This document shows positions 38,724 to 60,428 of a DNA stretch of 64,000 nucleotides, piece after piece. How positions within the stretch are numbered: the first letter of the stretch is position 1; each line of letters opens with the position of its first letter. Source of the DNA: Myxococcota bacterium (lineage in GTDB: Bacteria; Myxococcota_A; UBA9160; UBA4427); the NCBI GenBank assembly GCA_965223565.1, contig CBDCWV010000016.1, positions 828,518-892,517 on the forward strand. Direction: 5' to 3'. A program made the translations under genes and the position numbers. A model generated the notes under the pieces. It had not been told where the DNA came from, ran no database searches, and was given only the letters and a program-made list of their open reading frames with translations.

Positions 38724-38784
38724 TCGACCCCGAATGAGGCCCGGCTGCAGCGGCGAGTGGGCTCAGCTGGGTGAAGGAGGGCCT

Positions 38785-42343: not shown

Positions 42344-43153
42344 CTACCCCTGCGCAGACGAGCGCCGGCCTCGGAGGCTCGCGGCCCCTGCGGCGAGCAA
42401 TAGACCCGGGAGGATCACGAAGAGAATGTGGGACTGGAGCAGGGGTACGCCGGGCGCCTCGGTATCGAGGACGACCACGTCGATGACTTCGCCCACGGCC
42501 TGGCTGACCTGTCCCGATTCGAGCACGACCCCGTCCCCCGCGTAGCCGGTTCCGATCAGGATCTGCGCTGTGCCGGGCGCGACGGCCTCGAAGGTCACCC
42601 GAAACTGCGCACCTCCACCGCCGATGACCCCGTCGAGCCCCGGATCGTCGGGGCTTGCAGGGTTGGCGCTCAAGGTCGAGCCCGTGAACAGCCACACGCG
42701 GTTGCCCTGATTCCCGATTGCGCTCTCGGCCAGTGGGGCGTCGATGCGATTCGGGACGCCGATCATGCAACCCGTCGGCGGCGGCGCGCAGAGCGCATGG
42801 AAGATCTCACTGACGGCCTCTCCCGAGGCGTCGACGTAGTCGATGACGGCTTCGTCGTATCCATGGACCGAGGCGCCGAGGCCGTACACCGCATCGCCAT
42901 CCGCGCTCACGCGCACGTCGATCACGAGCGTTTCTCCGGGGCGCATGCCGGCCGGATCGGCGCCGCTCATGCCAATCACGTCGAACGTCACTGCGGTGGC
43001 GCCGGTCGCGACGAGGAGCATGACCGCGCCCAGCAGGCCGTCGACGAAGAGCGCGGTGGACACCGCCGAGGCCCGCGCGACCGAGACCGCCGCAGAGCTC
43101 TCCGGCGGGACCTCTCCTGGGATCATGGAGTGCATGGCAGCGTCCCAGCACAA
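42344..43153 (-). CDS. Secreted hypothetical protein with a C-terminal TM-plus-basic tail (same tag type as 24098..24778)
   Basis: ORF 42344..43153. The C-terminus is ...DTEAPGVPLLQSHILFVILPGLLLAAGAASLRGRRSSAQG. The start is uncertain (ATGs at 43153, 43135 and 43126) and overlaps the upstream gene's 3' end. Confidence 0.6.
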   Translation of the reverse strand: MCWDAAMHSMIPGEVPPESSAAVSVARASAVSTALFVDGLLGAVMLLVATGATAVTFDVIGMSGADPAGMRPGETLVIDVRVSADGDAVYGLGASVHGYDEAVIDYVDASGEAVSEIFHALCAPPPTGCMIGVPNRIDAPLAESAIGNQGNRVWLFTGSTLSANPASPDDPGLDGVIGGGGAQFRVTFEAVAPGTAQILIGTGYAGDGVVLESGQVSQAVGEVIDVVVLDTEAPGVPLLQSHILFVILPGLLLAAGAASLRGRRSSAQG

Positions 43154-43620
43154 GCGAGTCCCGAGGGCCCGGGCGCGGCGTTGGTCGTCTGGAAGCGCTC
43201 TAGAAACACGGCGAAATCGGTGATGGTCACGACTCCGTTGCCATCGTGGTCCGCCTCGCCGCCCGGCTCGGTCAATGCTTCGACCAAGACACCGTAGTCG
43301 AGCGTCGTAATCTGGAAATCATCGTTGTAGTCCGGGTCGCAGGCGTTGCCGTAGCCGTCGAGGTCGCTGTCGACCTGGTTCGAGGCCTCGTTGGGACCGT
43401 TCGGGATGACCGAGCAATTGTCGAAAGCGTCCGGGACGAGATCGCCATCCGCATCGCTCAAGGCCAACGCTGCGCTCACCGCCCAGAAGGGGGCCGTCCA
43501 GAGCGGGGCTGACCCGAGTGCGGCCCAGGCCAGGCTTGCCATCACGGGGAGGGCCAATGCGGTCGGGACATGCCGAAGACCGGATCGGGACTCGATGATC
43601 GAAACGGGGTCGTGGGACAC
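43123..43620 (-). CDS. Secreted Ca-binding protein with thrombospondin type-3 repeats and a dockerin/EF-hand-like loop
   Basis: DADGDLVPDAFDNCSVIPNGPNEASNQVDSDLDGYGNACDPDYNDD matches the TSP3 pattern DxDxDGxxDxxDNC...Q.D.D.DG.G..CD. It is followed by DHDGNGVVTITDFAVFLERF. Confidence 0.65.
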   Translation of the reverse strand: MSHDPVSIIESRSGLRHVPTALALPVMASLAWAALGSAPLWTAPFWAVSAALALSDADGDLVPDAFDNCSVIPNGPNEASNQVDSDLDGYGNACDPDYNDDFQITTLDYGVLVEALTEPGGEADHDGNGVVTITDFAVFLERFQTTNAAPGPSGLACAGTLPCTP

Positions 43621-43883: not shown

Positions 43884-43907
43884 AATTGCATTCTCAGAAA
43901 ATGAGAG
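43884..43907 (+). promoter_or_regulatory. AT-rich bipartite motif/inverted repeat upstream of the TonB-dependent receptor
   Basis: AATTGCATTC (43884-43893), TCA, then GAAAATGAGAG (43897-43907). It contains the inverted repeat TTCTCA/TGAGAG. The first element ends 113 nt before the ATG at 44006. Both 10-mers recur at 47472-47491. Confidence 0.35.
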
Positions 43908-44005
43908 TAGCGTGTTACCGACCGGGTCGAGCACGGGCTACCGAACCATCCATCGCGCGACGACCGGATGGGACCCGCGTCCGGAGAGGGAGATTCGAGG
44001 GCCCG

Positions 44006-46291
44006 ATGCCGACTCTTCGCGCTGCGTGCCTAGCGTACGCGACATGCCTCGCGATCGATGCGACCTCCGCGTTGGCCCAGAGCGACGATTACGGGGACGG
44101 TGGCGACCCCTGGACCGGGATCGAAGAGTTCATCGTCACGGGAACGGGAAGCCTCAGCTCCCTCGCCCAGGCGACCTCGACGGCGGTCACCGCCTTCGAC
44201 GCCCTGGAGCTCGATCGCCGTGGAATCGCCGACATCGACACGCTCGGTCTGAACGTTCCAAACCTGTTCATCAGCAAGAACGGCGCGAGCCCGGTGGTGA
44301 CGATCCGCGGCATCGGCTCGACCTCCGGCGGCATCTCGGCCGACGAGGCCGTCGCCGTCCACGTCGACGGCGTCTACATGAAGCGCCCGCTCTTCCTCGC
44401 CGCCGAGTTCTTCGATCTCGAAGACCTCCAGGTCGCACGCGGTCCGCAGGGATTCCGAGGCGGAAAGAACGCGAACGGCGGATCCCTCAACTTCGTGTCC
44501 CGGAAGCCGACCGACGACTTCGCGGCCTCGGCGCAGGCGACCTTCGGCAACTACGGACAGAAGCGGATCACCGGATTCGTGAACGCTCCCATCGTCGAAG
44601 CCGTCTCGACAAGAGTCGCCTACTTCTACGAGAAGCGGGATCCTTACTCGACGCTCACGGGACGATTCGCAGGTGAGTTCGCCGAGGAGGCCGGCGACGA
44701 CGCGGACGATCTCGGTTTTCGCGCGCACGTCCGCGTCGCGCCGAGCGAGGGACTCGAGCTCTTGCTCTCGGGCAACTACTTCCAGCAAAAGGGCGCCGGG
44801 CCGGCCGTGAGCCTCGACGGCGACCTGAGTGCAGCACAGCTGAATCTCGGGGCGACGCCCCTCTCCTCGGACGTGCGAAGGGTGAGCCTCAACGCGCCGC
44901 CGGATCAGAACAACAAGATCTTTGGCGGCAGCGCGACCCTGTCCTGGGAGATCCCCTCTCCCAAATGGCTCGACGTCCTGGACCTGACGGCAATCGGCGC
45001 CTGGGAGCGTGTCCAGCGGTCCGACAAGCGCGACGGCGACCTGACGGATGTCGAGTTCCAGCGACAGGATCTGCAGGACGCCCAGGAGCAGGGAAGCGTC
45101 GAGGCCTTCGTCGACGTGGAAGCGGGCCAGCTGACGGGTCGGGCCGGCGTGTGGTTCTTCGACGAACGATTCGATACGGATCTCGCGGTCGACTGCCCGA
45201 TCTGCACCGGCGGCGGCGGGATCAACCGGACGCTCGACATCCGCACCGGCCTCGACGGCAGGAGCTACGGAGTCTACGGGGATGTCGAGTGGAGATTCGA
45301 CGAGAGCTGGACGCTGAAGCTCGGCGCCCGGTATTCCTGGGACGAGCGAAACGGCTTCGGCGAGCGCCTGAGTCGATTCGGTGGCTTGATCGGCCAGCCC
45401 TTCGGCTTCGGGGCCTCGGGCGACGAATGGGACGGTCTGACCGCGCGGGTGAACCTCGAGTGGGGCCCCACCGAGGACAACCTCTTCTATATCGAGCTGG
45501 CCCGCGGCTACCGATCGGGCGGACTCAATCTCGGCCTCGACAGCGACCCGAACGTCGGTGCCGACGGCTTCTCGAACATCGTCCTGCCGCCCTACGATCC
45601 GGAATACGTCTGGACCTACGAGGCGGGCACGAAGAACGAGTTCCTGGGCGGCGACCTGCGCATCAACGCGACGTTCTTCTTCATGGACTACACCGATCTA
45701 CAGGTCGCGCAGCCGGTGTTCGGCGTCGTCAAGACGGACAACGTCGCAGAGGTCCAGAATCTGGGCATCGAGATCGAGGGGCACTACTCGCCCATCCCCG
45801 ACGCGCGATTGGATTACACACTCTCCTGGCAGCACGCGCGGACCCGACGCGGTCTCGCCAACGATCCTATCCAGACGATCCGTGGCGTCGTGACTCGTGA
45901 CCTACTCCAGGACCTGGGCGGGAATCGCCTGCCCAACGCGCCGGATCTGACCGTGAAGCTCGGGCTGGAGTACGAGTTCCAAATCGGCCGCTACGGCACG
46001 CTCACGCCGCGCATCCAGTATTTCTGGCAGGACGAGACCTACTATCGTGTCTTCAACACCGATCTGGATCTCGACGAGTCCCGCCAGATTCTCGACGCCA
46101 AGCTGAGCTGGCAGCTGAGCGACGGAATGATCCGCGTCGTCCTGTTCGTGAACAACCTCCTCGACGAGGACATGATAAGAAGGCTCACGCCGATCATCGG
46201 ATTCGGGGTGCCTGGCAACACACCGCCGCAGCTCCAGCGTCAGAGCACGGCACCTCGCACGGTCGGCATCACGGTCGGCGTCAGCTACTGA
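44006..46291 (+). CDS. TonB-dependent receptor
   Basis: The signal peptide is MPTLRAACLAYATCLAIDATSALAQ. The plug region is IEEFIVTGT...VTIRGIG. A long beta-barrel follows, ending in the aromatic terminus ...TVGITVGVSY. Confidence 0.9.
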   Translation: MPTLRAACLAYATCLAIDATSALAQSDDYGDGGDPWTGIEEFIVTGTGSLSSLAQATSTAVTAFDALELDRRGIADIDTLGLNVPNLFISKNGASPVVTIRGIGSTSGGISADEAVAVHVDGVYMKRPLFLAAEFFDLEDLQVARGPQGFRGGKNANGGSLNFVSRKPTDDFAASAQATFGNYGQKRITGFVNAPIVEAVSTRVAYFYEKRDPYSTLTGRFAGEFAEEAGDDADDLGFRAHVRVAPSEGLELLLSGNYFQQKGAGPAVSLDGDLSAAQLNLGATPLSSDVRRVSLNAPPDQNNKIFGGSATLSWEIPSPKWLDVLDLTAIGAWERVQRSDKRDGDLTDVEFQRQDLQDAQEQGSVEAFVDVEAGQLTGRAGVWFFDERFDTDLAVDCPICTGGGGINRTLDIRTGLDGRSYGVYGDVEWRFDESWTLKLGARYSWDERNGFGERLSRFGGLIGQPFGFGASGDEWDGLTARVNLEWGPTEDNLFYIELARGYRSGGLNLGLDSDPNVGADGFSNIVLPPYDPEYVWTYEAGTKNEFLGGDLRINATFFFMDYTDLQVAQPVFGVVKTDNVAEVQNLGIEIEGHYSPIPDARLDYTLSWQHARTRRGLANDPIQTIRGVVTRDLLQDLGGNRLPNAPDLTVKLGLEYEFQIGRYGTLTPRIQYFWQDETYYRVFNTDLDLDESRQILDAKLSWQLSDGMIRVVLFVNNLLDEDMIRRLTPIIGFGVPGNTPPQLQRQSTAPRTVGITVGVSY

Positions 46292-46313: not shown

Positions 46314-47228
46314 CTAGAACCCGCGCCACTTCAGGCGGAAGCCCGCCGACACCGCAGCCGCGACCCGCTCGAAGTCGTAGTCGTAGCGCGTGAGCCAATT
46401 GGTTCCGAGCACGTCCAGCGAGCCGTCGAAGTCGCCGAAGAGGTAGGCGGCCTGCGCCTCGAGGAAGAGCGTGGGAATCCACGTCCCGCGCTCGCGCATC
46501 TCCGCTTCCAGGGCGAGTCGTCCGCCGACGCCGTGATGCGTGAGACTGTCGCTCGCGGTTCGCTCGAGCTGGACTCGCGGCAGTGGGCGCGGCCAGATCT
46601 CTTCCTCGAACACGCCGCGGACCGTGAGTGACTGCCCCACGTAGTCGACAGACGGTCGCACGACGAGGCTCCAACCCGGTTGTGGAGCGACGAACTCGAC
46701 GCCAACGCCCACGAACCAACGCCAATGGAAGCGGGCATCGGCGTAGATCACGGGCTCTTTGACGGTCTGCGGACCGATCCCCTCGGCGGAGGCGATCGTG
46801 ACCCGCCCGTCGAGCGGTACGTAGAGACCGGCATCCACGAAGACCCGCGGCGCGCCCGGAATCGACTCGAGCGTGGGACCGGCGAGCTGGGCAGAGAGCG
46901 CGATCGCCCCCTTGATCAGATCGCGTTTCGAGCTGTCGCCAAACGGCTCGAACGAAGGCTCGGGCGGCTGGCCGCGATCGGGCGGGTCGAAAAGTAGCGT
47001 CTCGCCGAATACCGACGCCTTCGCACGATGGCCGATCCCGGCGATCCCGAGACCCGCTGCGAGCGTGAGACGACCGCGCTCTTCGCGACGGAGGTTCGGT
47101 TCGTCCGTCGAGCTCGATTCGTTCGCGAACGCGACGTGGGGAAGCGTCGCGCACGCCGCCAACAGAGCGCGGAAGACCGCGCGGCGATGCCCATGAGCCT
47201 TCGATGTTCGACTGAGGTGGGACGGCAT
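46314..47228 (-). CDS. Outer-membrane beta-barrel protein (hypothetical)
   Basis: MPSHLSRTSKAHGHRRAVFRALLAACATLPHVAFA is the signal peptide. The body has an alternating beta-strand-like pattern. The C-terminus is ...SAGFRLKWRGF (terminal Phe). This is the frame of ORF 46314..47417. Confidence 0.65.
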   Translation of the reverse strand: MPSHLSRTSKAHGHRRAVFRALLAACATLPHVAFANESSSTDEPNLRREERGRLTLAAGLGIAGIGHRAKASVFGETLLFDPPDRGQPPEPSFEPFGDSSKRDLIKGAIALSAQLAGPTLESIPGAPRVFVDAGLYVPLDGRVTIASAEGIGPQTVKEPVIYADARFHWRWFVGVGVEFVAPQPGWSLVVRPSVDYVGQSLTVRGVFEEEIWPRPLPRVQLERTASDSLTHHGVGGRLALEAEMRERGTWIPTLFLEAQAAYLFGDFDGSLDVLGTNWLTRYDYDFERVAAAVSAGFRLKWRGF

Positions 47229-47471
47229 GCTTTCCCTGCGGGTATCCGCGCGCGATACCCCACACGATCTGTGATCCGCTCGCGACGAGACTAGATGATG
47301 GGTGCCCAGTTGGGAGAGCCCTCTGCTTCCCCGTGGAAAGCGCTTGCGGCCGAATCCCATCCACGGCCGCCCGCCCGGGGTGAATCGATCCGCCCCTAGG
47401 CCGCTCTCTGCGACCACAGAATCGTCGGCGGACGCGCGACGCCTCTAGAATCGCGGCGTAACGAACCTCTG

Positions 47472-47491
47472 GAAAATAGAGAATCGCATTC
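47472..47491 (+). promoter_or_regulatory. Second copy of the bipartite AT-rich motif, upstream of the PEP-CTERM gene
   Basis: GAAAATAGAG (47472-47481) is directly followed by AATCGCATTC (47482-47491). The motif ends 118 nt before the ATG at 47609. Confidence 0.3.
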
Positions 47492-47608
47492 CACTCTGCC
47501 GAGAAGCAAGTAGAAAAAAAGAGCCCATCTGCCACGGCTTTCGTGGTAGAAGATAGCTTTGGCGGCCCTCTCACCGGGGCGTCAAACCGGGACAGAGGGG
47601 ATTCATCG

Positions 47609-48964
47609 ATGCGATTCGGTCGACGAGATCGCGGTGCTACGGGCATTCTCGCCCGCATTCTTCTTTCTACTCTTGGTGTGGTTCTCGCGATGGCGCTTGC
47701 CGGCCTGGCCGCGAGCCCATCGATCGCCCAGGAGCGCGCGATCTATCGCCTCGACCTGACCGCCCAGATCGACGCCGCGGCGACCGGGTCCGCCGGCGGC
47801 AGCGCGATTCCGGACGGCTACCTCGTGATCGATCACGACGGCGCCGGCAACGTCGCCCTCCAGCTCGGCAGCTGGGTCTCCGGCGACGTCGACCTCACCT
47901 TCGGCAACGGCGAGACGACGAATGATCACTTCGCGGTCGCGCTGGCCGGCGCCACCGGCACGCTCACAGGCACCCTCGCGAGCGGAACGATCGTCTGGTC
48001 GACCGACGCCTACGTCTACCGCACGTTCGGCACCCGAACGTGTACCCAGGCCGCCGACGGCCAGCGCTGCTCGACCGATCCCGACATGGGCGCATCGGGC
48101 GCCGGCGTGTTCGTGATCCTCCAGCCCGGGATCACGAACACGACGCCGGCCGGCCCGACGGGTGGCCTGCCCCTCCCGGCGCCCGTCGCACTGCCGACGA
48201 TGGCGCTCAGCGGCTCGAGCCTGACGGCCTCCCTCGCCGACTTCGTAGATCTCGGGGCGGGCGTCTCGACAGACCTCACGATCGAGGCCACCCGGATCGA
48301 CACGCCCTCGGCCGAGAAGGTCATCATCGATCTCGACCCGACCACGAGCACCGAGATCATCACGGGCACACCCGTGATCAACACGACGCCTCTCGACGGA
48401 TTCGTCACCCTCGAGATCGACGGAACGGACGTGACGCTGCTCGGCTCCAGCTGGTTCTTCTCGGTAAACTGGCTCGACTGGGGCCCAACGCAGGTCGGCC
48501 CGGGAAGCTTCAACGGCCGCTACAGCATGTTCCAGCTCGCGGGCGGCTCCGGCACGCTCACGGGTACCTCCGCCTCCGGCTCGATCATCTGGGACGTCTT
48601 CTCGCCCTCGCGTCTCGCGCTCGAGACGAGCGGCAAGATGTGCACCCAGCCGGCGGACGATGGCCTCTGCACGTCGGATCCGGATTTCTTCCTGGTACTC
48701 GGCGATCCCGTGCCGGCCGGTCCGACCGTCGTTCGAGCGAATATGGTCGACTTCACGGACTTCACGCTCGGGGACCTGACGCTCTCGGCATCGAGCGTGA
48801 GCTCGACGGTCTTCGGCTTCAACGATGATGGCATCGCCGGCAATGGTGTCTTCAACAACCAGTTCGACGGCGACGTCGTTCCCGTCCCTGAGCCGGGTCT
48901 CTTCACCGGGCTCGCCGCCGGCCTGGTCGCCTGTGGCGCGCTCTCGCGCTCGCGACGGAGGTAG
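47609..48964 (+). CDS. PEP-CTERM-tagged secreted protein with an internal ~200-aa duplication
   Basis: The signal peptide is MRFGRRDRGATGILARILLSTLGVVLAMALAGLAASPSIAQ. The C-terminus VPVPEPGLFTGLAAGLVACGALSRSRRR has PEP, a TM segment and an Arg cluster. Confidence 0.8.
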   Translation: MRFGRRDRGATGILARILLSTLGVVLAMALAGLAASPSIAQERAIYRLDLTAQIDAAATGSAGGSAIPDGYLVIDHDGAGNVALQLGSWVSGDVDLTFGNGETTNDHFAVALAGATGTLTGTLASGTIVWSTDAYVYRTFGTRTCTQAADGQRCSTDPDMGASGAGVFVILQPGITNTTPAGPTGGLPLPAPVALPTMALSGSSLTASLADFVDLGAGVSTDLTIEATRIDTPSAEKVIIDLDPTTSTEIITGTPVINTTPLDGFVTLEIDGTDVTLLGSSWFFSVNWLDWGPTQVGPGSFNGRYSMFQLAGGSGTLTGTSASGSIIWDVFSPSRLALETSGKMCTQPADDGLCTSDPDFFLVLGDPVPAGPTVVRANMVDFTDFTLGDLTLSASSVSSTVFGFNDDGIAGNGVFNNQFDGDVVPVPEPGLFTGLAAGLVACGALSRSRRR

Positions 48965-49073: not shown

Positions 49074-49799
49074 GTGATCAGAATGTTGCTGCACGAAAAG
49101 CTGACTGCGATGAAGCGAGGCCCGTTGCGGGCGGCTTCGATTCTGGCGATCGGGATGGTCCTGATCGCGAGCGGTGTCCACGCGAGCCCGGTGGGCCTGC
49201 AATATGACGTCAACTTCGACGACTTCGGTGTCGTTGGCGGCGCCGATCTCGATCAGACGGTGACCTTCGACGGGACGACGAAGACGATCGGGGACGTCAC
49301 GCTCAGCGAGCAGGCCCGCTTGCTGCCGGACGGAACCGAGCTGATCGAATTCAACATCTCCGCGAGCCAGCCGCTCGTCGATCTGTCCAGCAATACCCGA
49401 TCGGACTGGCGAATCGGCTTCGACAACATCGTCTACGGCGATGGCTTGACGAGACAACGAAGCGCGTTCATTCTCGGCTTCACGGCCGGCGGGAGCTACA
49501 TCACGGCGTCCCCGCTGACCCAATCGTTCGTGGTCGGCACCCATCCGATCGACGGCCATCCAATCATCTCGCTCATTCCCCAGCACCCGAGCCTCCCGGG
49601 TCCGGGCGACAACGTCGGGGCGAGCTCGGGCGGCTTCGCGACCTTCGACAGTCTGCTGGACATCTACATCGGGGATGCGACGCTCGCCGAGCAGATCGAC
49701 GGGATCCAGATCGCGATGGTCGTGCCGGAGCCGGGCACCGCGCTCCTGATGGGCCTCGGCCTGGCCGGACTCGCGGGCTCACGGAGGCGCCGCGCCTAG
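49074..49799 (+). CDS. PEP-CTERM-tagged secreted protein
   Basis: The C-terminus is VVPEPGTALLMGLGLAGLAGSRRRRA. The N-terminal signal is ...MKRGPLRAASILAIGMVLIASGVHA. Start options are GTG 49074, ATG 49083 and ATG 49110. Confidence 0.8.
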   Translation: MIRMLLHEKLTAMKRGPLRAASILAIGMVLIASGVHASPVGLQYDVNFDDFGVVGGADLDQTVTFDGTTKTIGDVTLSEQARLLPDGTELIEFNISASQPLVDLSSNTRSDWRIGFDNIVYGDGLTRQRSAFILGFTAGGSYITASPLTQSFVVGTHPIDGHPIISLIPQHPSLPGPGDNVGASSGGFATFDSLLDIYIGDATLAEQIDGIQIAMVVPEPGTALLMGLGLAGLAGSRRRRA

Positions 49800-50102: not shown

Positions 50103-51296
50103 ATGACCCCCGACGCTCTCGAGACACGCGACTTCCCGCCGCCGCCTGCCGACCTCGCCGCGTACCGAGCCGCGCTCTCCGCCTGGCTCGATGCTCATCA
50201 CGACGCGCTCGCCCCGAAATACGATCCGCCGGGCGAGCTCGACCAGCACGTGGACCAGATGCAGCGTGTGAAGCGACTCCTTTGGGACGCGGGCTTCATG
50301 CAGTGCGGCTGGCCCACGCGCGTCGGCGGCCGCGGCGGCTCTCCGATGATGCGGATCGAGCTCGGCGCCCAGATCGCCGCGCGCGACTACGCCGACCCCG
50401 GACTCTTCTCGCTGATCGAGGTGCTCGCACCGACGGTGATCGACTTTGCGCCGACGGAGCTCGCGGCGGAGATGATCCCGCTGCTGCTCTCCGGCCGCGA
50501 GATGTGGTGTCAGGGCTTCTCGGAGCCCGGCTCGGGAAGCGACCTCGCGGCGCTCGCCTGCCGCGCGACGCCCAAGGAAAGCGACCGCGGGACCGCGACA
50601 ACCTGGGTCGTGAACGGCCAAAAGGTCTGGACCAGCCTCGCGCAGTTCTCCGAGCGCTGCGTTCTGCTCACACGCACCGGCACGCCCGAGTCCCGCCACC
50701 GCGGGATCACGGCCTTCTTCGTCGACATGGACACGCCCGGCATCTCGGTCGCGCCGCTCGAGATGATGAACGGCGAGCTCGAGTTCGCGGAGGTCTTCTT
50801 CGACGACGTAGAGGTCCCCGCGGATCGCATCTTCGGCGGCGTGAACGGCGGCTGGGCCGTCGCGATGAGCATCCTCCCCTACGAACGCTCCTCCTGCTTC
50901 TGGCAGCGCATCGGCTACCTCTACACCCGCCTGCAGAAGCTGGTCGAGCGGGCCCCCGACGACGATCGCGCAGCCGCGGCGCTCGGGGAGGCCTACGCCG
51001 AGCTCCACGCCCTGCGCTCCCGTTCGCGGGTGACCCAGCACAAGCTCGCGAACGAGGGCACGATCGGCGCCGACACGTCGATCGACAAGGTGCTGATCGC
51101 GTCGGCCGAGCAGAGCCTCTTCGATACGGTGCGCAGGCTGCTGCCCGGCGTGGTCGAGTTCGACGACTCGCCCGATGGGCAGAGCTGGCGCCTCGAATTC
51201 CTCTATTCGCGCGCGGCGTCGATCTACGGCGGCACGGGGGAGGTCCAGCGCGACATCATCTCGCGCCGCCTGCTCGATCTCGGAGATTTTCGATGA
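50103..51296 (+). CDS. Acyl-CoA dehydrogenase (alpha-type subunit of a split pair)
   Basis: MTPDALETRDFPPPP...WCQGFSEPGSGSDLAAL...GQKVWTSLAQFSERCVLLTRTG...IYGGTGEVQRDIISRRLL. The ATG is at 50103. The stop overlaps the next start (ATGA at 51293-51296). Confidence 0.9.
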   Translation: MTPDALETRDFPPPPADLAAYRAALSAWLDAHHDALAPKYDPPGELDQHVDQMQRVKRLLWDAGFMQCGWPTRVGGRGGSPMMRIELGAQIAARDYADPGLFSLIEVLAPTVIDFAPTELAAEMIPLLLSGREMWCQGFSEPGSGSDLAALACRATPKESDRGTATTWVVNGQKVWTSLAQFSERCVLLTRTGTPESRHRGITAFFVDMDTPGISVAPLEMMNGELEFAEVFFDDVEVPADRIFGGVNGGWAVAMSILPYERSSCFWQRIGYLYTRLQKLVERAPDDDRAAAALGEAYAELHALRSRSRVTQHKLANEGTIGADTSIDKVLIASAEQSLFDTVRRLLPGVVEFDDSPDGQSWRLEFLYSRAASIYGGTGEVQRDIISRRLLDLGDFR

Positions 51297-52267
51297 TCGA
51301 CGCCGAGGATCGCGCGCTACTCGAGAAATCCGTCGAGGCCGCCCTCGCCGACGCCGAGCCCGGCGGCGACGTGGATGCGCTGCTCGCCGAGCTCGACTGG
51401 GCCGACCTGCTCGACGCGGAGCCCGCGGACGCGATCGACATCGTCTTCCGCGCCCTCGGTTCGGTCGACGTCCGCTCGTCGGCCCTCGACGACGTGCTGC
51501 TCCACGCTCTCGGCATGCCGCCACGCGGCGATCTCGCGGTCGTCCTCCCTGCGTTCGGAACGTGGAGCCCACCCGGCCACGACGTGACCACGACGGGCGG
51601 TAGGATCGAAGCGAGCGGACTCGTGACAGGGCGCGGCGCGCGAGCGAGCGAGCTCCTCGTCGTGTGCGGCCCCGAAGACGCGCCCCGCGCCGCGACGATC
51701 GCGGCGGCCGATGCCGAATGCGCGGGTATCACGGGTGTCGACCCCGCCTTCGCCTATCAATCGTTCCGATTCGAAGGCCATCCGTCGGAAATCACGCCGC
51801 TCGAAGCCACCCGTTGGAGCGAAGCCGTCGCCCTCGCCCGCCGCGCCCTAGCCACCTGGATCGCAGGCGCGAACCGCACCATGCTCGAGATGGCGCGAAC
51901 CCACTCTCTCGAGCGTGAGCAATTCGGTGCACCGATCGCCCAGTTCCAGGCCGTTCGCCACCGCCTCTCCGAGGCGCTCGTCGCCGTCGAGTCGACCGAG
52001 GCCTGCCTCGTCTCCGCGCGCGACGAGCCGAACGAGCAGACCGCCGCGATGGCCAAGGCGCTCGCCTCGCGCAACGCACGGATCGTCGCGCGCCATTGCC
52101 AGCAGGTCCTCGCCGGAGTGGGCTTCACGACCGAGCACGCCTTCCACCGCTTCCTCAAGCGCGTGATGGCCCTCGAAGGCCTCCTCGGCACGGCGGACGC
52201 GATTCTGCTCGAGGTCGGCCGTCGGCTCCTCGAGACGCGACGGGCACCCACGTTGATCGAGCTCTAG
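51293..52267 (+). CDS. Acyl-CoA dehydrogenase-family protein (beta-type partner subunit)
   Basis: MIDAEDRALLEKSVEAALADAE... The C-terminal ACAD helical domain is ...TMLEMARTHSLEREQFGAPIAQFQAVRHRLSEALVAVESTEA...VLAGVGFTTEHAFHRFLKR. It lies in frame within ORF 50282..52267. Confidence 0.8.
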   Translation: MIDAEDRALLEKSVEAALADAEPGGDVDALLAELDWADLLDAEPADAIDIVFRALGSVDVRSSALDDVLLHALGMPPRGDLAVVLPAFGTWSPPGHDVTTTGGRIEASGLVTGRGARASELLVVCGPEDAPRAATIAAADAECAGITGVDPAFAYQSFRFEGHPSEITPLEATRWSEAVALARRALATWIAGANRTMLEMARTHSLEREQFGAPIAQFQAVRHRLSEALVAVESTEACLVSARDEPNEQTAAMAKALASRNARIVARHCQQVLAGVGFTTEHAFHRFLKRVMALEGLLGTADAILLEVGRRLLETRRAPTLIEL

Positions 52268-52292
52268 GAACCACCCCGCCACGGAGACCGAC

Positions 52293-54401
52293 ATGATCGG
52301 CACGAACCCTTCGCTCGAGGCACTCGCCGAGGCGTTCCAGGCCTGGATCGAAGAGCGCGCGGACGATCACCGTGCACTGAAGACGCTCCCCTACGAATAT
52401 GCCGAACGTTATGCGCCGCTCTGCAGACTACAGAGCGAGCTCTACGACGCGGGCTGGGCGCGCTACGGCTGGCCCGAGGAGTACGGAGGCCTCGGCGGCA
52501 CGGTGCTCCACCGTGCTCTCGTGCTCGACCTGCTCGCACGCAACGGCTACCCCGCGAGACATTTCTTCGAGCACCTCGAGATCCTGCCGCCCGCGCTCAG
52601 CCGCTTCGCGCGACCCGAGCTGGCGAAGGCGCTGATCCCGCCGACGCTACGCGGCGACGTGCTCTGGTGTCAGGGCTTCTCGGAGCCGACGGCGGGGTCC
52701 GACCTCGCGAATCTCAAGACGACGGCCCGACTTACGGACGAGGGCTATCGGCTCGACGGTCACAAGATCTGGACGACCTGGGCCGGCTGGTCGACCCACC
52801 TGCTGGTCCTCGCGCGAACCGGCAGCCAGGAGTCTCGCCATCGCGGCATCTCCGCCTTCGTGACGCCGCTCGACGTCCCGGGCCTCGAGGTGGGCAGGAT
52901 CCGCCAGTCGAACCAGCACGACGAGCTCGCAGAGGTCTTTCTCGACGACGTGCTCGTGCCGCAAGACAGTCGCATCGGCGAGGAGGGCGACGGCTGGGCG
53001 GTCGCCATGCACATCCTCGCGGGCGAGCGCGGAAGCTTCGCCTGGCTGCGCTCGAACGAGATCTTCGTGAAGCTCGAACGAATCGCGGCGCAGGCCGGGG
53101 CCGAGCACGACGGCCGGCTGGGCGAATCGCTTGCGCGTCTGCTGGCCGTCCGCTGTCGGACTCGCCCCGTCCTCGAGAAGCTCGCGCGCGGCGAGGCCCC
53201 GGGACCCGAGTCCTCGGTCACCAAGGCCGGTCTCATCGACACGGAACAGCAGTTCTACGACACCGTGCGAGCGATCCTCGCCGGGGGTCTCGACCTCGGT
53301 ACGAGTGAAGACATCCTCGAGTGGCAAGAGCGCTACCTCTATTCGCGCGCCGGGAGCATCTACGGCGGCGCGCGACCGATCCAGCTGAACGTGATCGCGA
53401 GGCAGCTCGTCGGAGGCGACGGCCAGATCGATGCGGACGCCAGCGAAGACGAAGCGATGATGCGTCGGAGCGTGGCGGAGGCGATCGAGAAGACGGAGCG
53501 CGGACGCGAAGCGCTCGACGGACTCGACTGGTGGTCCTTCGCGGCGACGCCCGAAGACGAGTTCGGTCGCACGGCGTTCAGCAGCTGGTTCGAAGAGCAG
53601 GGGCGCGCACTGGCAACGAGTCCGGCGCTCGCCGGCATCTGGGTCGCTCCGGTCGTCGCGAAGCTAGGCCTCGAGGCGGGCCGGGTCGCGGTGGGCTGGG
53701 CGGCGCGCGAGGGCGACGAGCGGAGGCTCGTCGTCGGCTTCGAGCCGGGCGAGACGACGCACCTGGTCGTCCCGGACGAGGGCGGATACCTCGTGCTCGC
53801 CGCCGATTCCGCCGTGGAGCAGCCTTCGAACGCGCTCGATTCGGGGCTCGTCCGCTGCTTGGTGGCGGGCACTTCGGCGGCGGAGTTCGTAGCGGTCGAT
53901 GCACGGGACCTCGCGCACGCCCGTGATCTGGCGATGATCGCCGCGGCGCTCGAGATCGGTGGTGCGGGTGTGGCACTTCTCGAGGCGGCAGTCCGACATA
54001 CGAAGGAGCGCGAGCAGTTCGGCCAGCCGCTCGCCGCCCTCCAGTCGGTCCAGCACCTCCACGCCGAGAGCCATATCGAAGTCTCGACCGCCCGCGCACT
54101 TTCCCGGGCCGCGCTCGAGGAGTGGAGCCAGGGCGACGCAAGCGCGATCGCGCGGTCGGCCAAGCTCGTCGCCGGCCGCACCGGTCTGCGCCTCGCACAA
54201 CGCGCGCTCCAGTGCTTCGGCGCGATCGGCTTCACCGACGAGCACGTGCACCACCTCTATTCCCGGCGCATGCACACGCTCGACGCGCTCCTCTCGACGT
54301 CGGATGCCCTCGCCGAGTCCCTCGGCGCTGAGCTCCGGAGGAGCGGACGCGCTCCGCGCGGCATCGAGATCTACCACTCGGCCACAGACGCCGCCGTCTG
54401 A
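52293..54401 (+). CDS. Fused alpha-beta acyl-CoA dehydrogenase (single 702-aa polypeptide)
   Basis: Residues 1 to ~376 parallel the alpha protein (WCQGFSEPTAGSDLANL, GHKIWTTWAGWSTHLLVLARTG, IYGGARPIQLNVIARQL). The linker is DGQIDADASEDEA. Residues from M389 onward (ATG ATG at 53457-53462) parallel the beta protein (ALLEAAVRHTKEREQFGQPLAALQSVQHLHAE..., FGAIGFTDEHVHHLYSRR). Confidence 0.85.
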   Translation: MIGTNPSLEALAEAFQAWIEERADDHRALKTLPYEYAERYAPLCRLQSELYDAGWARYGWPEEYGGLGGTVLHRALVLDLLARNGYPARHFFEHLEILPPALSRFARPELAKALIPPTLRGDVLWCQGFSEPTAGSDLANLKTTARLTDEGYRLDGHKIWTTWAGWSTHLLVLARTGSQESRHRGISAFVTPLDVPGLEVGRIRQSNQHDELAEVFLDDVLVPQDSRIGEEGDGWAVAMHILAGERGSFAWLRSNEIFVKLERIAAQAGAEHDGRLGESLARLLAVRCRTRPVLEKLARGEAPGPESSVTKAGLIDTEQQFYDTVRAILAGGLDLGTSEDILEWQERYLYSRAGSIYGGARPIQLNVIARQLVGGDGQIDADASEDEAMMRRSVAEAIEKTERGREALDGLDWWSFAATPEDEFGRTAFSSWFEEQGRALATSPALAGIWVAPVVAKLGLEAGRVAVGWAAREGDERRLVVGFEPGETTHLVVPDEGGYLVLAADSAVEQPSNALDSGLVRCLVAGTSAAEFVAVDARDLAHARDLAMIAAALEIGGAGVALLEAAVRHTKEREQFGQPLAALQSVQHLHAESHIEVSTARALSRAALEEWSQGDASAIARSAKLVAGRTGLRLAQRALQCFGAIGFTDEHVHHLYSRRMHTLDALLSTSDALAESLGAELRRSGRAPRGIEIYHSATDAAV

Positions 54402-54613: not shown

Positions 54614-55834
54614 ATGACCATCAAGGACAAGGCGGCCATCGTCGGGGTCGGCGCAACGCCCTACTACAGGCGGGGGCAATCGTATCCCGAAGACGAGCTC
54701 TCGATGGCCTGCACCGCAATCCTGTCGGCGCTCGAGGACGCTGGTCTCACGATCAAGGACCTGGACGGATTCTCGATCTACTCGAACAGCTGCGATCCCG
54801 CGACGGTCGGCGCGCAGCTCGGTGTTCCCGAGATCCGCTGGGCGACGACCACCACCTCGGGCGGTGGAGGCTGTGCAGGCGCGCTCGGTGTGGCGGCCGC
54901 CGCCGTACACGGGGGTCTCGCGAACTGCGTCGTCAGCCTGATGACGCTGCAGCAGCTGAACAAACGACTGGGTGGGTCGGCGGTCGGCGGCATGCTCGCC
55001 TATGCCATGACGTCGGATGCCGGGGGGAGCCCTTACGGCAGCAGCGGAATTCCTCCGTCGGCCGCATTCACCGCCAACAACGGTCTGCTCGCGCCGGGGC
55101 ACAGCTTCGCGCAGCTGGCCCAACGCCACATGTATCTCTACGGAACCCAACGCGAGCATTTTGCCGAGGTGTGTATCTCCACGCGTGAGAATGCGATGAA
55201 ACGACCGACGGCGCTCCGGCGAACCGAGCTGACGCTCGACGACTACTTCAATGCGCGCATGATCTCCGACCCACTCTGTCTGTTCGACTACACGATGGAG
55301 AGCGATGGGGCGGTCGCCGTCATCACGGTCTCGGCCCGCCGAGCCCGCGACCTGCGTCAACCGCCCGTCTACATCATGGGGTCGTGTCATGGCGGCTCGG
55401 GTCGCTGGGGTCCAGCGATCTTCCGCTACTTCCAGACACCCGACGATGAGTTCGCGTCCTCGGGGCATCGTCCCGTTGCGAAGCGGCTCTACGAGCTCGC
55501 CGGGGTCGGGCCGGCGGACGTCGATGTGGCCCTGCTCTACGACCACTTCTCGCCGATGGTGATCATGCAGCTCGAGGACTACGGGTTCTGTCCGATCGGG
55601 GAAGGCGGCCCCTTCGTCGCGGATGGCCACATCCGCTTCGGCGAGGGGTCGATTCCGGTGAATACGCACGGCGGCAATCTCTCGGAGGCGTACATCATCG
55701 GAATGACGCACGTGCGAGAGGCAGTCGAGCAGCTTCGCGGCACCGCCATCAACCAGGTGGCCGACGCCGAGATTGCGCTCGTCACCGGTGGGCCGGCGGG
55801 CCTGCCCGTGTCCGGCGCCCTGCTGCGACGTTAG
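54614..55834 (+). CDS. SCP-x/lipid-transfer-type thiolase-like protein
   Basis: MTIKDKAAIVGVGATPYYRRGQSYPEDELSMACTAILSALEDAGLTIKDLDG...VNTHGGNLSEAYIIGMTHVREAVEQLRG. The adjacent DUF35 gene matches the usual pairing. Confidence 0.85.
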   Translation: MTIKDKAAIVGVGATPYYRRGQSYPEDELSMACTAILSALEDAGLTIKDLDGFSIYSNSCDPATVGAQLGVPEIRWATTTTSGGGGCAGALGVAAAAVHGGLANCVVSLMTLQQLNKRLGGSAVGGMLAYAMTSDAGGSPYGSSGIPPSAAFTANNGLLAPGHSFAQLAQRHMYLYGTQREHFAEVCISTRENAMKRPTALRRTELTLDDYFNARMISDPLCLFDYTMESDGAVAVITVSARRARDLRQPPVYIMGSCHGGSGRWGPAIFRYFQTPDDEFASSGHRPVAKRLYELAGVGPADVDVALLYDHFSPMVIMQLEDYGFCPIGEGGPFVADGHIRFGEGSIPVNTHGGNLSEAYIIGMTHVREAVEQLRGTAINQVADAEIALVTGGPAGLPVSGALLRR

Positions 55835-55848
55835 TGGAGGATCGAATC

Positions 55849-56310
55849 ATGGCCGAGACAGAATCCTTCGGCGAAGTCGTCCAGGGAGTCTTCCCCTCGC
55901 TTCTCACGCAGACGCACGCGGACGAGGCGACCCAGCCCTTCTGGGACGCGGCACGCGAAGACCGGTTGATCGCGCCACGATGCGTGAATTGCGGGACGTT
56001 TCGACTACCGCCGAGCTCGTTCTGCTTCGAGTGTCAGCACCGCCGAGTCGAGTGGGTCGAGCTCCCGGGTACGGGCACGATCTACACCTTCACGGTCGTG
56101 CGACACCCGCTCCACCCGGATCTCGCGCCCGTTGTCCCCTACGCGTCGGGGGTCGTCGAGCTCGACGGGACCCAGGGCGCCGGCGCGCGCATGCTGGTGA
56201 ATATCATCGACTGCGACGTCGATTCGATCGCAATCGGCGATCCGGTCGAGATCGTCTGGGACCACGTCAACGACGAGATGACGACCCCGCGGTTCCGGCC
56301 GCGACGCTGA
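55849..56310 (+). CDS. Zn-ribbon/OB-fold protein (DUF35 family)
   Basis: CVNCGTFRLPPSSFCFECQH is a 4-Cys ribbon, followed by the OB-fold region WVELPGTGTIYTFTVVRHP. The ATG at 55849 has GGAGGA upstream. Confidence 0.85.
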   Translation: MAETESFGEVVQGVFPSLLTQTHADEATQPFWDAAREDRLIAPRCVNCGTFRLPPSSFCFECQHRRVEWVELPGTGTIYTFTVVRHPLHPDLAPVVPYASGVVELDGTQGAGARMLVNIIDCDVDSIAIGDPVEIVWDHVNDEMTTPRFRPRR

Positions 56311-56489
56311 GGGGGCCGACGGGCTGCTCTCTCGAGGAAATCGCCGCCAGGAGGCTACCTTTGGCCGTCGAGCCGGTCGGCGGCAGCCTCCAGAGTGCGG
56401 ACTACGGCTTCCCATCGCTCCAGGAGGCTCGATGAGTTTCGCCTCGCATGCGCCGCGCCGGCGGCATGCTTTCCAGGAGGAAAAGAGAC

Positions 56490-57731: not shown

Positions 57732-60161
57732 TCAGCCGACGATCTTGCGCTCGCGGAGGTCGGCGATCGCCGAATCGGTGTAACCGAGCTCGGAGAGTAG
57801 GTCGTCGGTATGCGCGCCGGCGAGGACGCCGGGCTTCGCCTGGGTCGACGATCTCGAGAAGCGCGCGAGCGGCGCCAGCCGCGCATGGGCGTCGAAGGTC
57901 GGATGGACGACGTCGGCCAGGTAGCCCGAGGCCCGCCCGAATTCCTCGCTCAGCAGGAGATCTTCGATGCCCTCGGTTGCGACGGCGACGCAGCCGACGT
58001 CGGCCGCCAACATTCGCGCCTCCCATTCCTGCTTGCCGCGAGCGGCAAAGACGTCGGTCAGGATCTCGACCAGCGCCGCGTCGTGCTCGGTGCGTCGCTC
58101 CGGCGTCGCGAAGCGATCATCGGTCGCCAGGTCGACTTCGGATACAAGTGCCGCCACCAGCGCTTCCCACTCGTGCTCGGCCGGCGCGGCGAGGAAGATC
58201 CAGCCATCTTTCGCATCGTAGACGCGATAGAGAGCCGACAGGCCCCGCAGCTCCGCGTCCGGCGTGGGCGCCGCCGGAGCGCCCGGATACACGACGGCCT
58301 CGCCGGACATCGCGTGGACGTTGGTCCGGAGCATGGTCGCACTGATCTCTTGCCCACCGGCGCCCCTTGCCCGCGCAACCAGCCCGAGCGTCAACGCCGT
58401 CGCGACGCCCAGTGCCGCAAAGCCGTCCGCCTGGGCGTGAACGACGGTGCCCCCCAACGCGAGCAGTCTGGCACCAGACCGTACCTGCTCGAGATCGACC
58501 TCGTCTACAGCGTGAAGCAGTGGATCGATATTCGCGCGCGTGATACCCGCCGCCGCGCCGAAGCTCGGTGCGTAGGCCGGCCGATGCCCATCCGGTCCGC
58601 CATTGCCATAGCCCTGGGCATTGACATAGACGACGTCGGGGTTGAGGGCGCGGATTCGTTCGTACCCGAGCTCGAGGCGCTCCGCGACCCCTGCCCGAAA
58701 ACCCTGCATCACGACATCCGCACGCTTCGCGAGCGCGTGAACCAATTCGAGACCTTCGGGCGTCGAAAAGTCGATGCAGACGCTCTCCTTGCCCTGCATC
58801 ACCTTCGCGCCGCCCGCCTCGGGAAAGGGCACCATCGTTCGGATCGCATCACCCTCGAGCGGCTCGACCTTGATCACTCGGGCACCCAGATCGGACAGCA
58901 GCGTCGATCCGTAGGGCGCTGCGTAGAGTCCCGCGATCTCGAGGATCGTGATCCCCTCGAGCGGCATGCCAGTGAGCGTCGTCTCTGCGGAATCGGCCTG
59001 GGATCGCCCCTGCTGGCGGTCGCGCGTCGCGTCGTGTTCGCCGAGCCGGGGGGCCGAGCGCCCGAGCGAGGCGGGCGTTGCGGCCAGGTCGAAGAGCGCA
59101 CCGGGCTGGCGCACGACGCCCCGTTCGGCGTCTTCGATCTCGACGACGAAGCCTTCCGCGAGCAGTTGTCGGTGGTCCAGCACTTCCGGACCGATCCGAA
59201 ACTCCTCGGCGAAGACATTCGGATCCTCCTCGAAGATCGCCTGCCACTCGGCCAGGGTCTTGCTGCGAACCCTTTCGAGCATCATCGACCAGGCCGCCGA
59301 TCGCTTCGCTTTGTCTTCCAGGCGCGGAAAGCCTTTCCACTTCGGATCCGTGAACAGCTGCGCAAGCTCCAACGCCTCGATCAGCGCCTGGAAGAGCCGC
59401 GGGGCAACTTGTGCGAACTGCAGCCAGTGGCCGTCCTTGGTCAGGCCGACCAACAGGAAGAAGGAGAACGGTCCGGTCGGAATACCGTCCGCGTCGTAGT
59501 TCGGCACCCGCTGGAAACCGCCCGGCCACTTCTGGTCGACCAGATGCTCGAACCAGCCCCAGGTGTCGAGCGCCGTCAACGCCTGAGCCAGGCTCGTCTC
59601 GACGTGCTGGCCGAGCCCGCTCGATTCGCGTTCCAACAACGCCGCGAGCGTCGCGTGGAGCGCGACCTGAGAGGCGGAGAAGGAACACCAGGGGGCCGCC
59701 AGCATCGGTGGTCGGCCGAACGGGATGATTCGGGCGAAGCCCTGCATCAGGCCGATCTTCGCGGCGACGAGCCCTTCGTATCCCTTGATCCCCGAGGCCG
59801 GCCCGAGGCGGCCGAAGCCGCTGATCGACGTGTACACGAGCCGCGGATTCGCGGCCGCAAGCGCGTCGTATCCGAGCCCGCGACGCTCGAGCGTGCCCGG
59901 GCGGAAGGTCTCGATCAGGACGTCCGCCGACTCGGCGAGGTCGCGAACCGCCTGCTGACCCGCTCCCGTTCTCAGGTCTGCCTCGACGCTCTGCTTGCCG
60001 CGTGCCCACGCGGCGAAGGCCGGATGGGCACGCAGCGACGCCCCGCCCGGCGGCTCCACCCACAAGACCTCGGCACCGAAGTCCGCGAAGAGCTGGCTCA
60101 CCTGGGCGCCTACACGGTTCGGTGAGAGATCGACGATGCGAAGCCCGTCCAGTGCGCCCAC
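57732..60161 (-). CDS. Tandem-fused family-III (CaiB/BaiF-type) CoA-transferase, two complete domains in one chain
   Basis: Domain 1: LDGLRIVDLSPNRVGAQVSQLFADFGAEVLWVEPPGG...LIETFRPGTLERRGLGYDALAAANPRLVYTSISGFG. Domain 2: LEGITILEIAGLYAAPYGSTLLSDLGARVIKVEPLEGD...VMQGFRAGVAERLELGYERIRALNPDVVYVNAQGYG. No ATG lies near domain 1. The GTG at 60161 is proposed, but the start is uncertain. Confidence 0.8.
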   Translation of the reverse strand: MGALDGLRIVDLSPNRVGAQVSQLFADFGAEVLWVEPPGGASLRAHPAFAAWARGKQSVEADLRTGAGQQAVRDLAESADVLIETFRPGTLERRGLGYDALAAANPRLVYTSISGFGRLGPASGIKGYEGLVAAKIGLMQGFARIIPFGRPPMLAAPWCSFSASQVALHATLAALLERESSGLGQHVETSLAQALTALDTWGWFEHLVDQKWPGGFQRVPNYDADGIPTGPFSFFLLVGLTKDGHWLQFAQVAPRLFQALIEALELAQLFTDPKWKGFPRLEDKAKRSAAWSMMLERVRSKTLAEWQAIFEEDPNVFAEEFRIGPEVLDHRQLLAEGFVVEIEDAERGVVRQPGALFDLAATPASLGRSAPRLGEHDATRDRQQGRSQADSAETTLTGMPLEGITILEIAGLYAAPYGSTLLSDLGARVIKVEPLEGDAIRTMVPFPEAGGAKVMQGKESVCIDFSTPEGLELVHALAKRADVVMQGFRAGVAERLELGYERIRALNPDVVYVNAQGYGNGGPDGHRPAYAPSFGAAAGITRANIDPLLHAVDEVDLEQVRSGARLLALGGTVVHAQADGFAALGVATALTLGLVARARGAGGQEISATMLRTNVHAMSGEAVVYPGAPAAPTPDAELRGLSALYRVYDAKDGWIFLAAPAEHEWEALVAALVSEVDLATDDRFATPERRTEHDAALVEILTDVFAARGKQEWEARMLAADVGCVAVATEGIEDLLLSEEFGRASGYLADVVHPTFDAHARLAPLARFSRSSTQAKPGVLAGAHTDDLLSELGYTDSAIADLRERKIVG

Positions 60162-60428
60162 AGCCCTGCACCTCGGGTCCCGTTCATGGCTCGCGCGAAC
60201 GTGAACCCATCTGAAGCGTCGTGAGTGTGGACACTTCGGACTGGCCCTGCCACCCCTGCGTCGACGAAGCCAGTGGCGCACGCAAGAGCGCGAATTCGTC
60301 GCATTGGATCCCCTCCCCATGGAGATCGTCCGTTCATCCATCGCGTCGGCTTGCGAGCCAATCGAATCTCGAACGATTTCGATCGGTCGGCGCGGGGTGG
60401 ATCGGTAGATCGTGGCGGCTTCCGCACC

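Follow-up and report, generated by a model that had tools for sequence, protein, structure and literature searches.

How does a two-subunit enzyme come to be encoded twice at one locus, once as a pair of genes and once as a single chain, and how would its active site be shared between the halves of that chain? The question is raised by three consecutive genes of the acyl-CoA dehydrogenase (ACAD) family in a Myxococcota bacterium, which lie in a 64,000-nt stretch of DNA with 66% G+C (the window, by which we mean the whole stretch analysed): gene 1 encodes a split alpha subunit, gene 2 a split beta subunit, and gene 3 a protein in which an alpha-like and a beta-like half are joined by a linker (coordinates in Table 1). 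Heteromeric ACADs of alpha2beta2 composition typify bacterial steroid catabolism and, in Mycobacterium tuberculosis, serve as drug targets. An earlier note on the same DNA had proposed that the locus captures both the split and the fused state of one heteromeric enzyme type. We judge it quite likely that the window holds two paralogous heteromeric ACADs, one split and the other built as an alpha-linker-beta chain, the latter in the opposite domain order to that of the fused enzymes FadE34/CasC.

Gene structure of the locus

The ATG of gene 2 overlaps the TGA of gene 1, the product of which contains GFSEPGSGSDLAAL (ATGA at 51293-51296), and gene 3 starts 25 nt past the gene 2 stop, with GGAGA upstream. 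In the 702-aa protein encoded by gene 3, residues 12 to ~385 match the N, M and C domains of Pfam ACADs, the linker is a 13-aa acidic stretch (DGQIDADASEDEA), and residues 552-660 match the ACAD C-terminal domain, this being the sole Pfam match of the beta half. All three products are identical in sequence to called genes on one 962,732-bp NCBI/ENA contig; the gene coordinates, the ATGA overlap, the length of the fusion, its linker and the in-frame ATG-ATG at 53457 hold as the earlier note had described them. Pairwise, the two alpha parts share 39% identity over their full length (E 3e-82) and the two beta parts 35% identity over the C-terminal 164 aa (E 1e-22), a similarity that, judged by these values, is far above chance. 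Between alpha parts and beta parts BLASTP detected no similarity, and a profile-profile alignment of the alpha half with the beta half was not significant, so that the residues of beta were mapped via alignments to canonical ACADs.

The fused architecture is widely conserved, as a search of protein collections returned 84 full-length collinear homologs (660-760 aa, 38-78% identity) from NCBI, ENA, JGI and Logan assemblies, which stem from different samples and span two phyla. In a scan of species-representative genomes they were found in Myxococcota ('Deltaproteobacteria') and in metagenome-assembled genomes (MAGs) of Acidimicrobiia. The linker of these homologs is short, mostly acidic and differs in length by a few residues.

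Division of catalytic and flavin-binding residues

In the alpha half of the fusion, the residues S130-E131-P132, G135-S136-D137, W160-T161, E245-R246 and Y357-G358-G359 show no or almost no variation among the 84 homologs. In alignments to Thermus thermophilus ACAD and VLCAD, E245 falls on the catalytic-base position of IVD/LCAD and G358 on the position of the catalytic Glu of MCAD. The column equivalent to MCAD R281 (column 273), a residue that we take to bind the pyrophosphate of the flavin adenine dinucleotide (FAD) of the neighbouring subunit, is variable in the alpha half, with no conserved Arg across the 84 homologs. The beta half carries the complementary set: R573, Q575, F576 and G577 (RxQFG) are kept in 82-83 of the 84 homologs, a motif scan found neither SEPxxGSD nor KxWT, and the IVD-type and MCAD-type base positions are occupied by Ala547 and Leu667, respectively. 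The split genes divide their motifs in the same way, gene 1 having SEPGSGSD (aa 140-147), KVWTS (aa 174-178), Y-E261-R at the IVD/LCAD base position and IYGG (aa 374-377, with Gly at the MCAD Glu position), and gene 2 having REQFG (aa 208-212, R208 being the RxQFG arginine) and a Leu at the MCAD Glu position in the alignment to 1ukw. E295 and D664 of the beta parts were considered as catalytic residues at the MCAD position and rejected, as the 1ukw alignment puts Leu there.

As far as these alignments and scans can tell, the flavin-ring motifs and the base-position Glu are confined to alpha, and the RxQFG Arg is confined to beta. Since the motifs are complementary, each alpha-beta unit is predicted to hold one FAD and one active site, which for the fusion predicts one of each per chain; on sequence evidence only, the catalytic Glu would reside in a single partner per unit, in the split and the fused enzyme alike. 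The prediction for the split enzyme is that gene 1 provides the catalytic base, the substrate site and the place of the flavin ring, and that gene 2 contributes the FAD-pyrophosphate Arg and has no active site of its own.

Origin of the fusion

When 120 alpha domains were placed in a bootstrapped neighbour-joining tree, the alpha-beta fusions of the window's type all fell in one clade, itself inside a 66-member clade (bootstrap 100) that otherwise consists of alpha-then-beta gene pairs, the hosts of these split pairs being Actinomycetes, Acidimicrobiia and Myxococcota. The Myxococcota fused subclade received a bootstrap value of 100; a value of 63 was obtained for the fused clade together with its nearest split pair (L035), which is a genuine pair with an ATGA overlap like that between genes 1 and 2. 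The beta tree was congruent with the alpha tree, with weaker support. Gene 1 groups (bootstrap 100) with its counterpart in the Myxococcota MAG SGMAG-50 (L001), in a separate subclade of split pairs; this MAG is the closest relative (77% identity) and has the same trio of alpha, beta and fused genes.

With the fused clade nested among alpha-then-beta pairs, the phylogeny favours fusion over fission. Because their identity amounts to 39% (alpha) and 35% (beta) and they fall in different subclades, the split and fused sets are, on this reckoning, old paralogs and not the two sides of a recent fusion or fission. The claim that the locus holds split and fused forms of the same heteromeric ACAD type stands, with the qualification that no recent event is captured here. 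The simplest reading would be one ancient fusion of an alpha-then-beta pair that later spread between two phyla; given the ATGA-overlap arrangement, a small indel could yield such a fusion.

Domain order and the known fused enzymes

The concept of a fused heteromeric ACAD is established. FadE34/ChsE3 of M. tuberculosis and CasC of Rhodococcus jostii RHA1 are two-domain steroid ACADs that act on C5 steroid side chains, and in CasC the catalytic Glu is present only in the C-terminal domain, FAD binding requiring the N-terminal one (PMC8399759), which implies a beta-alpha order for enzymes of the FadE34/CasC type. A 2024 paper also grouped ChsE3/FadE34 with CasC as enzymes of two fused domains. 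Both these known fusions and the apparent opposite order of their domains had escaped the earlier note.

It could accordingly be asked whether the 702-aa protein is an ortholog or an ordinary member of the FadE34/ChsE3-CasC family, in which case its architecture would not be new. Like CasC/FadE34 as described, it has two ACAD-fold halves in a ~700-aa chain with a single predicted active site, and distant fused homologs (L004, L006) adjoin genes for a KshA-like Rieske protein, HpaB, cytochrome P450, a short-chain dehydrogenase/reductase (SDR), enoyl-CoA hydratase and thiolase/DUF35 proteins; the order of the motifs, however, argues to the contrary. With hidden Markov models of both halves we detected five beta-alpha open reading frames (ORFs) of ~740 aa in fetched Acidimicrobiia loci, and with one of them as query we retrieved 120 proteins, 113 of which are themselves beta-alpha (including proteins of Nocardia, Rhodococcus and Gordonia, as well as JGI entries labelled '3-oxochol-4-en-24-oyl-CoA dehydrogenase'). 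A second search, for which one of these JGI entries served as seed, retrieved mostly FadE22-named mycobacterial proteins. In the FadE22-named, Rhodococcus and Nocardia proteins RxxFG lies at ~236, SEPxxGSD at ~464, KxWT at ~492 and ER at ~570-580, and in the window fusion this order is reversed (SEPxxGSD ~130, ER ~245, RxxFG ~573); the placement of the CasC Glu in the C-terminal domain points the same way. Furthermore, the alpha domains of the beta-alpha proteins fall outside the 100%-bootstrap clade of the window's proteins, in at least three places of the alpha tree. Judged by these beta-alpha homologs (authentic FadE34 and CasC standing outside the tree), the fusion showed no phylogenetic affiliation with the FadE34/CasC family, and we regard its membership as improbable. 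Since it is nested among alpha-then-beta pairs and apart from the beta-alpha proteins, the alpha-beta fusion looks like an event independent of the beta-alpha fusions.

In a library of representatives, the best 150 matches of at least 600 aa comprised 40 beta-alpha and roughly 20 alpha-beta proteins, some ten of the latter belonging to the window's family and the rest to remote families. Sequence databases thus contain double ACADs of diverse kinds, and the window's family is not alone in having the alpha-beta order. The same 150 matches included two true tandems with two full sets of flavin-ring motifs, P0410 (769 aa; two SEPxxGSD and two YEG base motifs) and P0437 (773 aa; two SEPxxGSD and two RxxFG motifs), which represent a third architecture besides alpha-beta and beta-alpha. 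In Acidimicrobiia, a beta-alpha ACAD (~740 aa) was found a few kb from a split alpha-then-beta pair (L048, 7462-9762; L052, 3790-6003, minus strand; L053, 3662-5887, minus strand), and also a few kb from an alpha-beta fused gene (L025, 14738-16954, minus strand; L026, 3978-6200, minus strand), so that both fusion orders coexist in one genome neighbourhood. The JGI label of P0196, P0204 and others denotes the activity of ChsE3/FadE34, and the named proteins nearest to them are mycobacterial FadE22 (721 aa); the label may have been propagated too far, and the position of FadE22 among the closest relatives makes it a two-domain beta-alpha ACAD.

Structure model and family assignment

An AlphaFold2 (AF2) model of the whole fused chain, built from the 84-sequence alignment, reached a mean pLDDT of 94.3 and a pTM of 0.94, and the relative placement of the two halves is confidently predicted in it. 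The model has a ten-residue loop (aa 375-384) between helices 361-374 and 385-400, and its beta half is composed of helical, beta-sheet and helical subdomains. This monomer model fits an intramolecular heterodimer. In a Foldseek comparison the alpha half aligned to Tcur3483 (TMt 0.82), and the full-length model aligned only to VLCAD-like long ACADs (~730 alignment columns, TMq 0.57, ~15% identity).

Among sequences of solved structures, gene 1 matched below 1e-20 only Tcur3483 (4.7e-29) and ChsE4 (4x28_A, 7e-27), the alpha subunits of both steroid alpha2beta2 ACADs that have a crystal structure, and the best match of gene 2 was Tcur3481, a steroid ACAD beta subunit (3e-13), with ChsE5 (4x28_D) also matched; a phmmer search with the alpha C-terminal domain alone did not retrieve the steroid ACADs. 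As for the NCBIfam models, IpdE2 was the best match for gene 2 (the two scores being 66.5 and 69.5 bits vs a cut-off of 450), pimC_large ranked first for gene 1 and second for the fused protein (150.8 and 126.2 bits vs 623.85), and pimD_small was matched by both beta parts (41.2 and 60.6 bits vs 652.7). A mycobacterial split relative (L036) was considered as a candidate for ChsE4-ChsE5 and rejected at 134 bits. We therefore place the proteins in the broad class of heteromeric ACADs, as orthologs of no characterised enzyme.

Another doubt is whether the ACAD fold serves some other chemistry here, such as that of an oxidase, a flavin-dependent monooxygenase or a desulfinase. Weak NCBIfam and Pfam matches to 3-sulfinopropanoyl-CoA desulfinase, HpaB_N and prolyl-PCP dehydrogenase, together with sulfatase and TauD genes both in the window and near the SGMAG-50 trio, lend this idea some substance, but the nearest relatives of known structure are true steroid acyl-CoA dehydrogenases, the Glu and Arg of the base motif do not vary, and the neighbouring CoA-transferase and thiolase-like/DUF35 genes fit beta-oxidation-like chemistry; we deem it a little less probable still than membership in the FadE34/CasC family.

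The fusion junction

That the fusion could be an artefact of assembly or sequencing (from a missed stop codon or a frameshift), or that beta could also be made from an internal ATG, is suggested by the in-frame ATG-ATG exactly at the start of the beta half and by the neighbouring pair, which proves the split organisation in the same genome. A sequencing error at the junction, which the earlier note had named as a danger to its reading, is excluded by the fused frame being kept in the 84 homologs, drawn as they are from four sources of assemblies and two phyla, and the G+C content at third codon positions (GC3) is uniformly high over the junction (0.85 before and 0.86 after). The Met-Met with which the beta half opens is limited to the window protein (P0001) and its closest homolog (P0002) among the 84 homologs (the next two have Leu-Met, all others different residues), and a promoter and terminator scan of the junction region found no promoter-like site and nothing useful. 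Because Met-Met is confined to these two proteins, separate expression of beta from a retained internal ATG, as the earlier note had envisaged, is unsupported; artefact and internal start together seem very improbable to us. As for a simple tandem of two complete, independently active ACADs of the homotetramer type, the other danger that the earlier note had named, P0410 and P0437 demonstrate that such proteins exist, but a beta half with neither a Pfam N-terminal or middle ACAD domain nor SEPxxGSD/KxWT and with Ala and Leu at both base positions, next to an alpha half lacking the pyrophosphate Arg, leaves this reading with hardly any probability.

Genomic neighbourhood

Table 1. The ACAD genes, the parts of the fused protein and the neighbouring features of the window
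Feature	Coordinates	Strand	Remarks
Gene 1, split alpha subunit	50103..51296	+	397 aa; Pfam ACAD N + M + C domains
Gene 2, split beta subunit	51293..52267	+	324 aa; Pfam ACAD C-terminal domain alone
Gene 3, fused alpha-linker-beta ACAD	52293..54401	+	702 aa
Alpha half of fused protein	52293..53417	+	aa 1-375; full-length similarity to gene 1
Acidic linker	53418..53456	+	aa 376-388 of fused protein
Beta half of fused protein	53457..54401	+	aa 389-702; opens with in-frame ATG-ATG (53457-53462)
SCP-x/Ltp-type thiolase-like protein	54614..55834	+	Pfam Thiolase_C_1, 7.6e-36
DUF35 protein (ChsH2-type zinc ribbon + OB fold)	55834..56310	+	Pfam OB_ChsH2_C 5.9e-22, zf-ChsH2 2.4e-10
Doubled family III CoA-transferase	57732..60341	-	869 aa; Pfam CoA_transf_3 1.6e-139, two units
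PEP-CTERM protein	49074-49799		just upstream of ACAD genes
ORF, coding-like GC3	47480-48964	+	no Pfam match
ORF, coding-like GC3	46314-47444	-	no Pfam match
TonB-dependent receptor	43886..46291	+	Pfam Plug + TonB_dep_Rec_b-barrel
ORF, coding-like GC3	42344-43318	-	no Pfam match
P450-like ORF	37448-38983	-	510 aa; matches only C-terminal third of P450 profile
P450-like ORF	35096-36799	-	566 aa; matches only C-terminal third of P450 profile
TauD-family dioxygenase	34216-35214	-	L001 counterpart 17710-18546
Protein of ~550-600 aa, first of two adjacent	30406-32049	-	four DUF5666 repeats
Protein of ~550-600 aa, second of two adjacent	32387-34186	-	four DUF5666 repeats
Sulfatase, large	6257-8674	+	L001 counterpart 13058-15487

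Downstream of the fused gene lie a thiolase-like protein, likely a downstream step of the same pathway, and a DUF35 protein, the usual partner of SCP-x/Ltp-type thiolase-like proteins (a longer ORF in another frame, 55773-56435, had no match); the same pair adjoins the fused homolog in L006. They are followed by a doubled CoA-transferase, a candidate for activation of the substrate with CoA. Family III CoA-transferases normally work as homodimers, and this one is seemingly another single-chain form of a dimeric enzyme in the same cluster; similar doubled proteins of 806 and 841 aa occur near the fused homolog in L006 (721-3141 and 17595-20120). An amidohydrolase_2 protein is also found downstream of the ACAD genes.

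Upstream, the TonB-dependent receptor and the PEP-CTERM protein imply that the host has an outer membrane, and the receptor, a possible uptake component, has an equivalent beside the trio of L001 and another in the vicinity of the L004 fused homolog. Two of the ORFs without a Pfam match lie between the receptor and the ACAD genes, the third just upstream of the receptor. Farther upstream we found the two P450-like genes (which may be divergent P450s or have overextended ORF starts), the TauD dioxygenase, transporters, a Baeyer-Villiger-type monooxygenase and the sulfatase. The presence of sulfatase and TauD genes in the window and beside the L001 trio hints at a sulfated substrate; the neighbours of that trio further include luciferase-like, CoA-transferase and additional ACAD genes.

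Among the fused loci, only L001 has a same-family split pair beside the fused gene. A distant-type split pair accompanies it in L002 and L014, distant alpha and beta genes lie near it in the Acidimicrobiia loci L024, L025 and L031, and at none of the other fused loci does a split pair occur within 10 kb. The distant fused homolog of L004 has a KshA-like gene close by, and the mycobacterial split relative is surrounded by MaoC hydratases, thiolases, an acyl-CoA synthetase and an SDR. Taken as a whole, the neighbouring genes suggest a beta-oxidation-like catabolism of bulky acyl-CoA.

Interpretation

We argue that the two ACADs of the window would work as follows. The split paralog would consist of separate, translationally coupled alpha and beta subunits. 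Flavin ring, acyl-CoA pocket and catalytic base (E261 in gene 1 and E245 in the fusion, at the helix-G position of IVD/LCAD) would all be housed in alpha alone, and beta alone would give the Arg that reaches over the subunit interface to clamp the FAD pyrophosphate (R208 in gene 2 and R573 in the fusion). Within the fused chain the two halves would form a heterodimer, and two such chains would associate into a dimer that corresponds to alpha2beta2; moreover, it is plausible that the fusion enforces the 1:1 alpha:beta stoichiometry that the earlier note had ascribed to it. It would have arisen once, from an alpha-then-beta pair with overlapping stop and start codons, and been conserved in uncultured Myxococcota and Acidimicrobiia. 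Both enzymes probably act in one pathway, where they would desaturate bulky acyl-CoA intermediates between the alpha and beta carbons, each at its own step or chain length, and this pathway would comprise TonB-dependent uptake together with the CoA-transferase, thiolase-like/DUF35 and P450 genes.

The part of this account that concerns the architecture is shown directly, by the way the genes are built and conserved, the complementarity of the motifs, the place of the proteins in the trees and a confident model of the single chain. Several points weigh against the account as a whole. Strict monophyly of the fused proteins received bootstrap values of 46% (alpha) and 55% (beta, 33/60), in distance-based neighbour-joining trees. 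The domain order of FadE34/CasC was taken from a sentence in a review and from homologs labelled FadE22 or '3-oxochol-4-en-24-oyl-CoA dehydrogenase', not from authentic sequences. The pimC_large, IpdE2 and pimD_small scores, lying far under their cut-offs, speak against orthology to characterised enzymes. The window contains none of the steroid ring-degradation genes looked for (KshA, KstD, Hsa), and a steroid substrate is not established. Lastly, it is by way of the motifs, the model and the neighbouring genes that we infer the FAD stoichiometry, the quaternary state, the substrate and the role in a pathway.

A more far-reaching version of the account, which we offer tentatively and think rather unlikely in its entirety, is that alpha-beta single chains are a convergent second invention of the fused heteromeric ACAD, reversed in domain order relative to FadE34/CasC, and together with the adjacent split paralog mark an undescribed pathway by which uncultured marine Myxococcota break down a bulky lipid, perhaps sulfated or steroidal, after uptake through a TonB-dependent receptor. 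The two enzymes would then act at successive steps of side-chain shortening, alongside the thiolase-like/DUF35, doubled CoA-transferase, P450 and sulfatase/TauD genes.

What appears new at this locus is a conserved family of reverse domain order and apparently independent origin, found in uncultured Myxococcota and Acidimicrobiia and standing here beside a split paralog; in the literature that we searched, the only fused forms found are reported to have the catalytic domain last. Should the proposed reading be true, the alpha-beta interface would tolerate either linker topology, and fusion would have happened repeatedly, with the ancestral gene order kept each time. The two orders would moreover offer a natural design pair for the engineering of single-chain ACADs. 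For annotation, SEPxxGSD followed by ER and then RxQFG in one ~700-aa chain provides a signature for proteins now labelled only 'acyl-CoA dehydrogenase family protein', and the family flags clusters for the catabolism of bulky acyl-CoA in uncultured Myxococcota and Acidimicrobiia. We see the advance as incremental rather than conceptual.

Comparison with known systems

The PimC/PimD pimeloyl-CoA dehydrogenase is likewise a two-subunit ACAD; the window proteins score far below its cut-offs, and the neighbourhood in the window holds nothing that points specifically to dicarboxylate degradation. VLCAD, ACAD9 and the bacterial FadE-type long ACADs (PDB 3OWA, 2Z1Q) are also single chains, in which an extra C-terminal part replaces the neighbouring subunit, so that they form dimers and not tetramers. 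Their extension is a partial helical duplication, whereas the fusion has a complete beta unit of three subdomains, and their catalytic Glu occupies the MCAD-type position, at which the fusion has Gly358.

Closer in kind are the steroid alpha2beta2 ACADs, namely ChsE4-ChsE5 (FadE26-FadE27, PDB 4X28), ChsE1-ChsE2 (FadE28-FadE29), IpdE1-IpdE2, Tcur3481-Tcur3483 (PDB 6WY8) and Scd1AB, in which the catalytic Glu resides in one subunit and FAD is bound at the alpha-beta interface (PMC8399759). As in these systems, adjacent genes of the window encode one complete and one degenerate ACAD (alpha and beta, respectively), and the motif pattern is complementary both in genes 1 and 2 and in the fusion. The window differs from them in that its proteins reach ~100-135 bits against the solved alpha subunits (hence no orthology), in that its host is an uncultured Gram-negative Myxococcota, neither an actinobacterium nor a known steroid degrader, and in that one of its two copies is a single chain. 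In this last respect the fusion resembles FadE34/CasC, with two ACAD domains in one ~700-aa chain and a predicted single active site built from both, and it departs from these enzymes, as they have been reviewed, in the order of its parts, E245 being N-terminal and R573 C-terminal.

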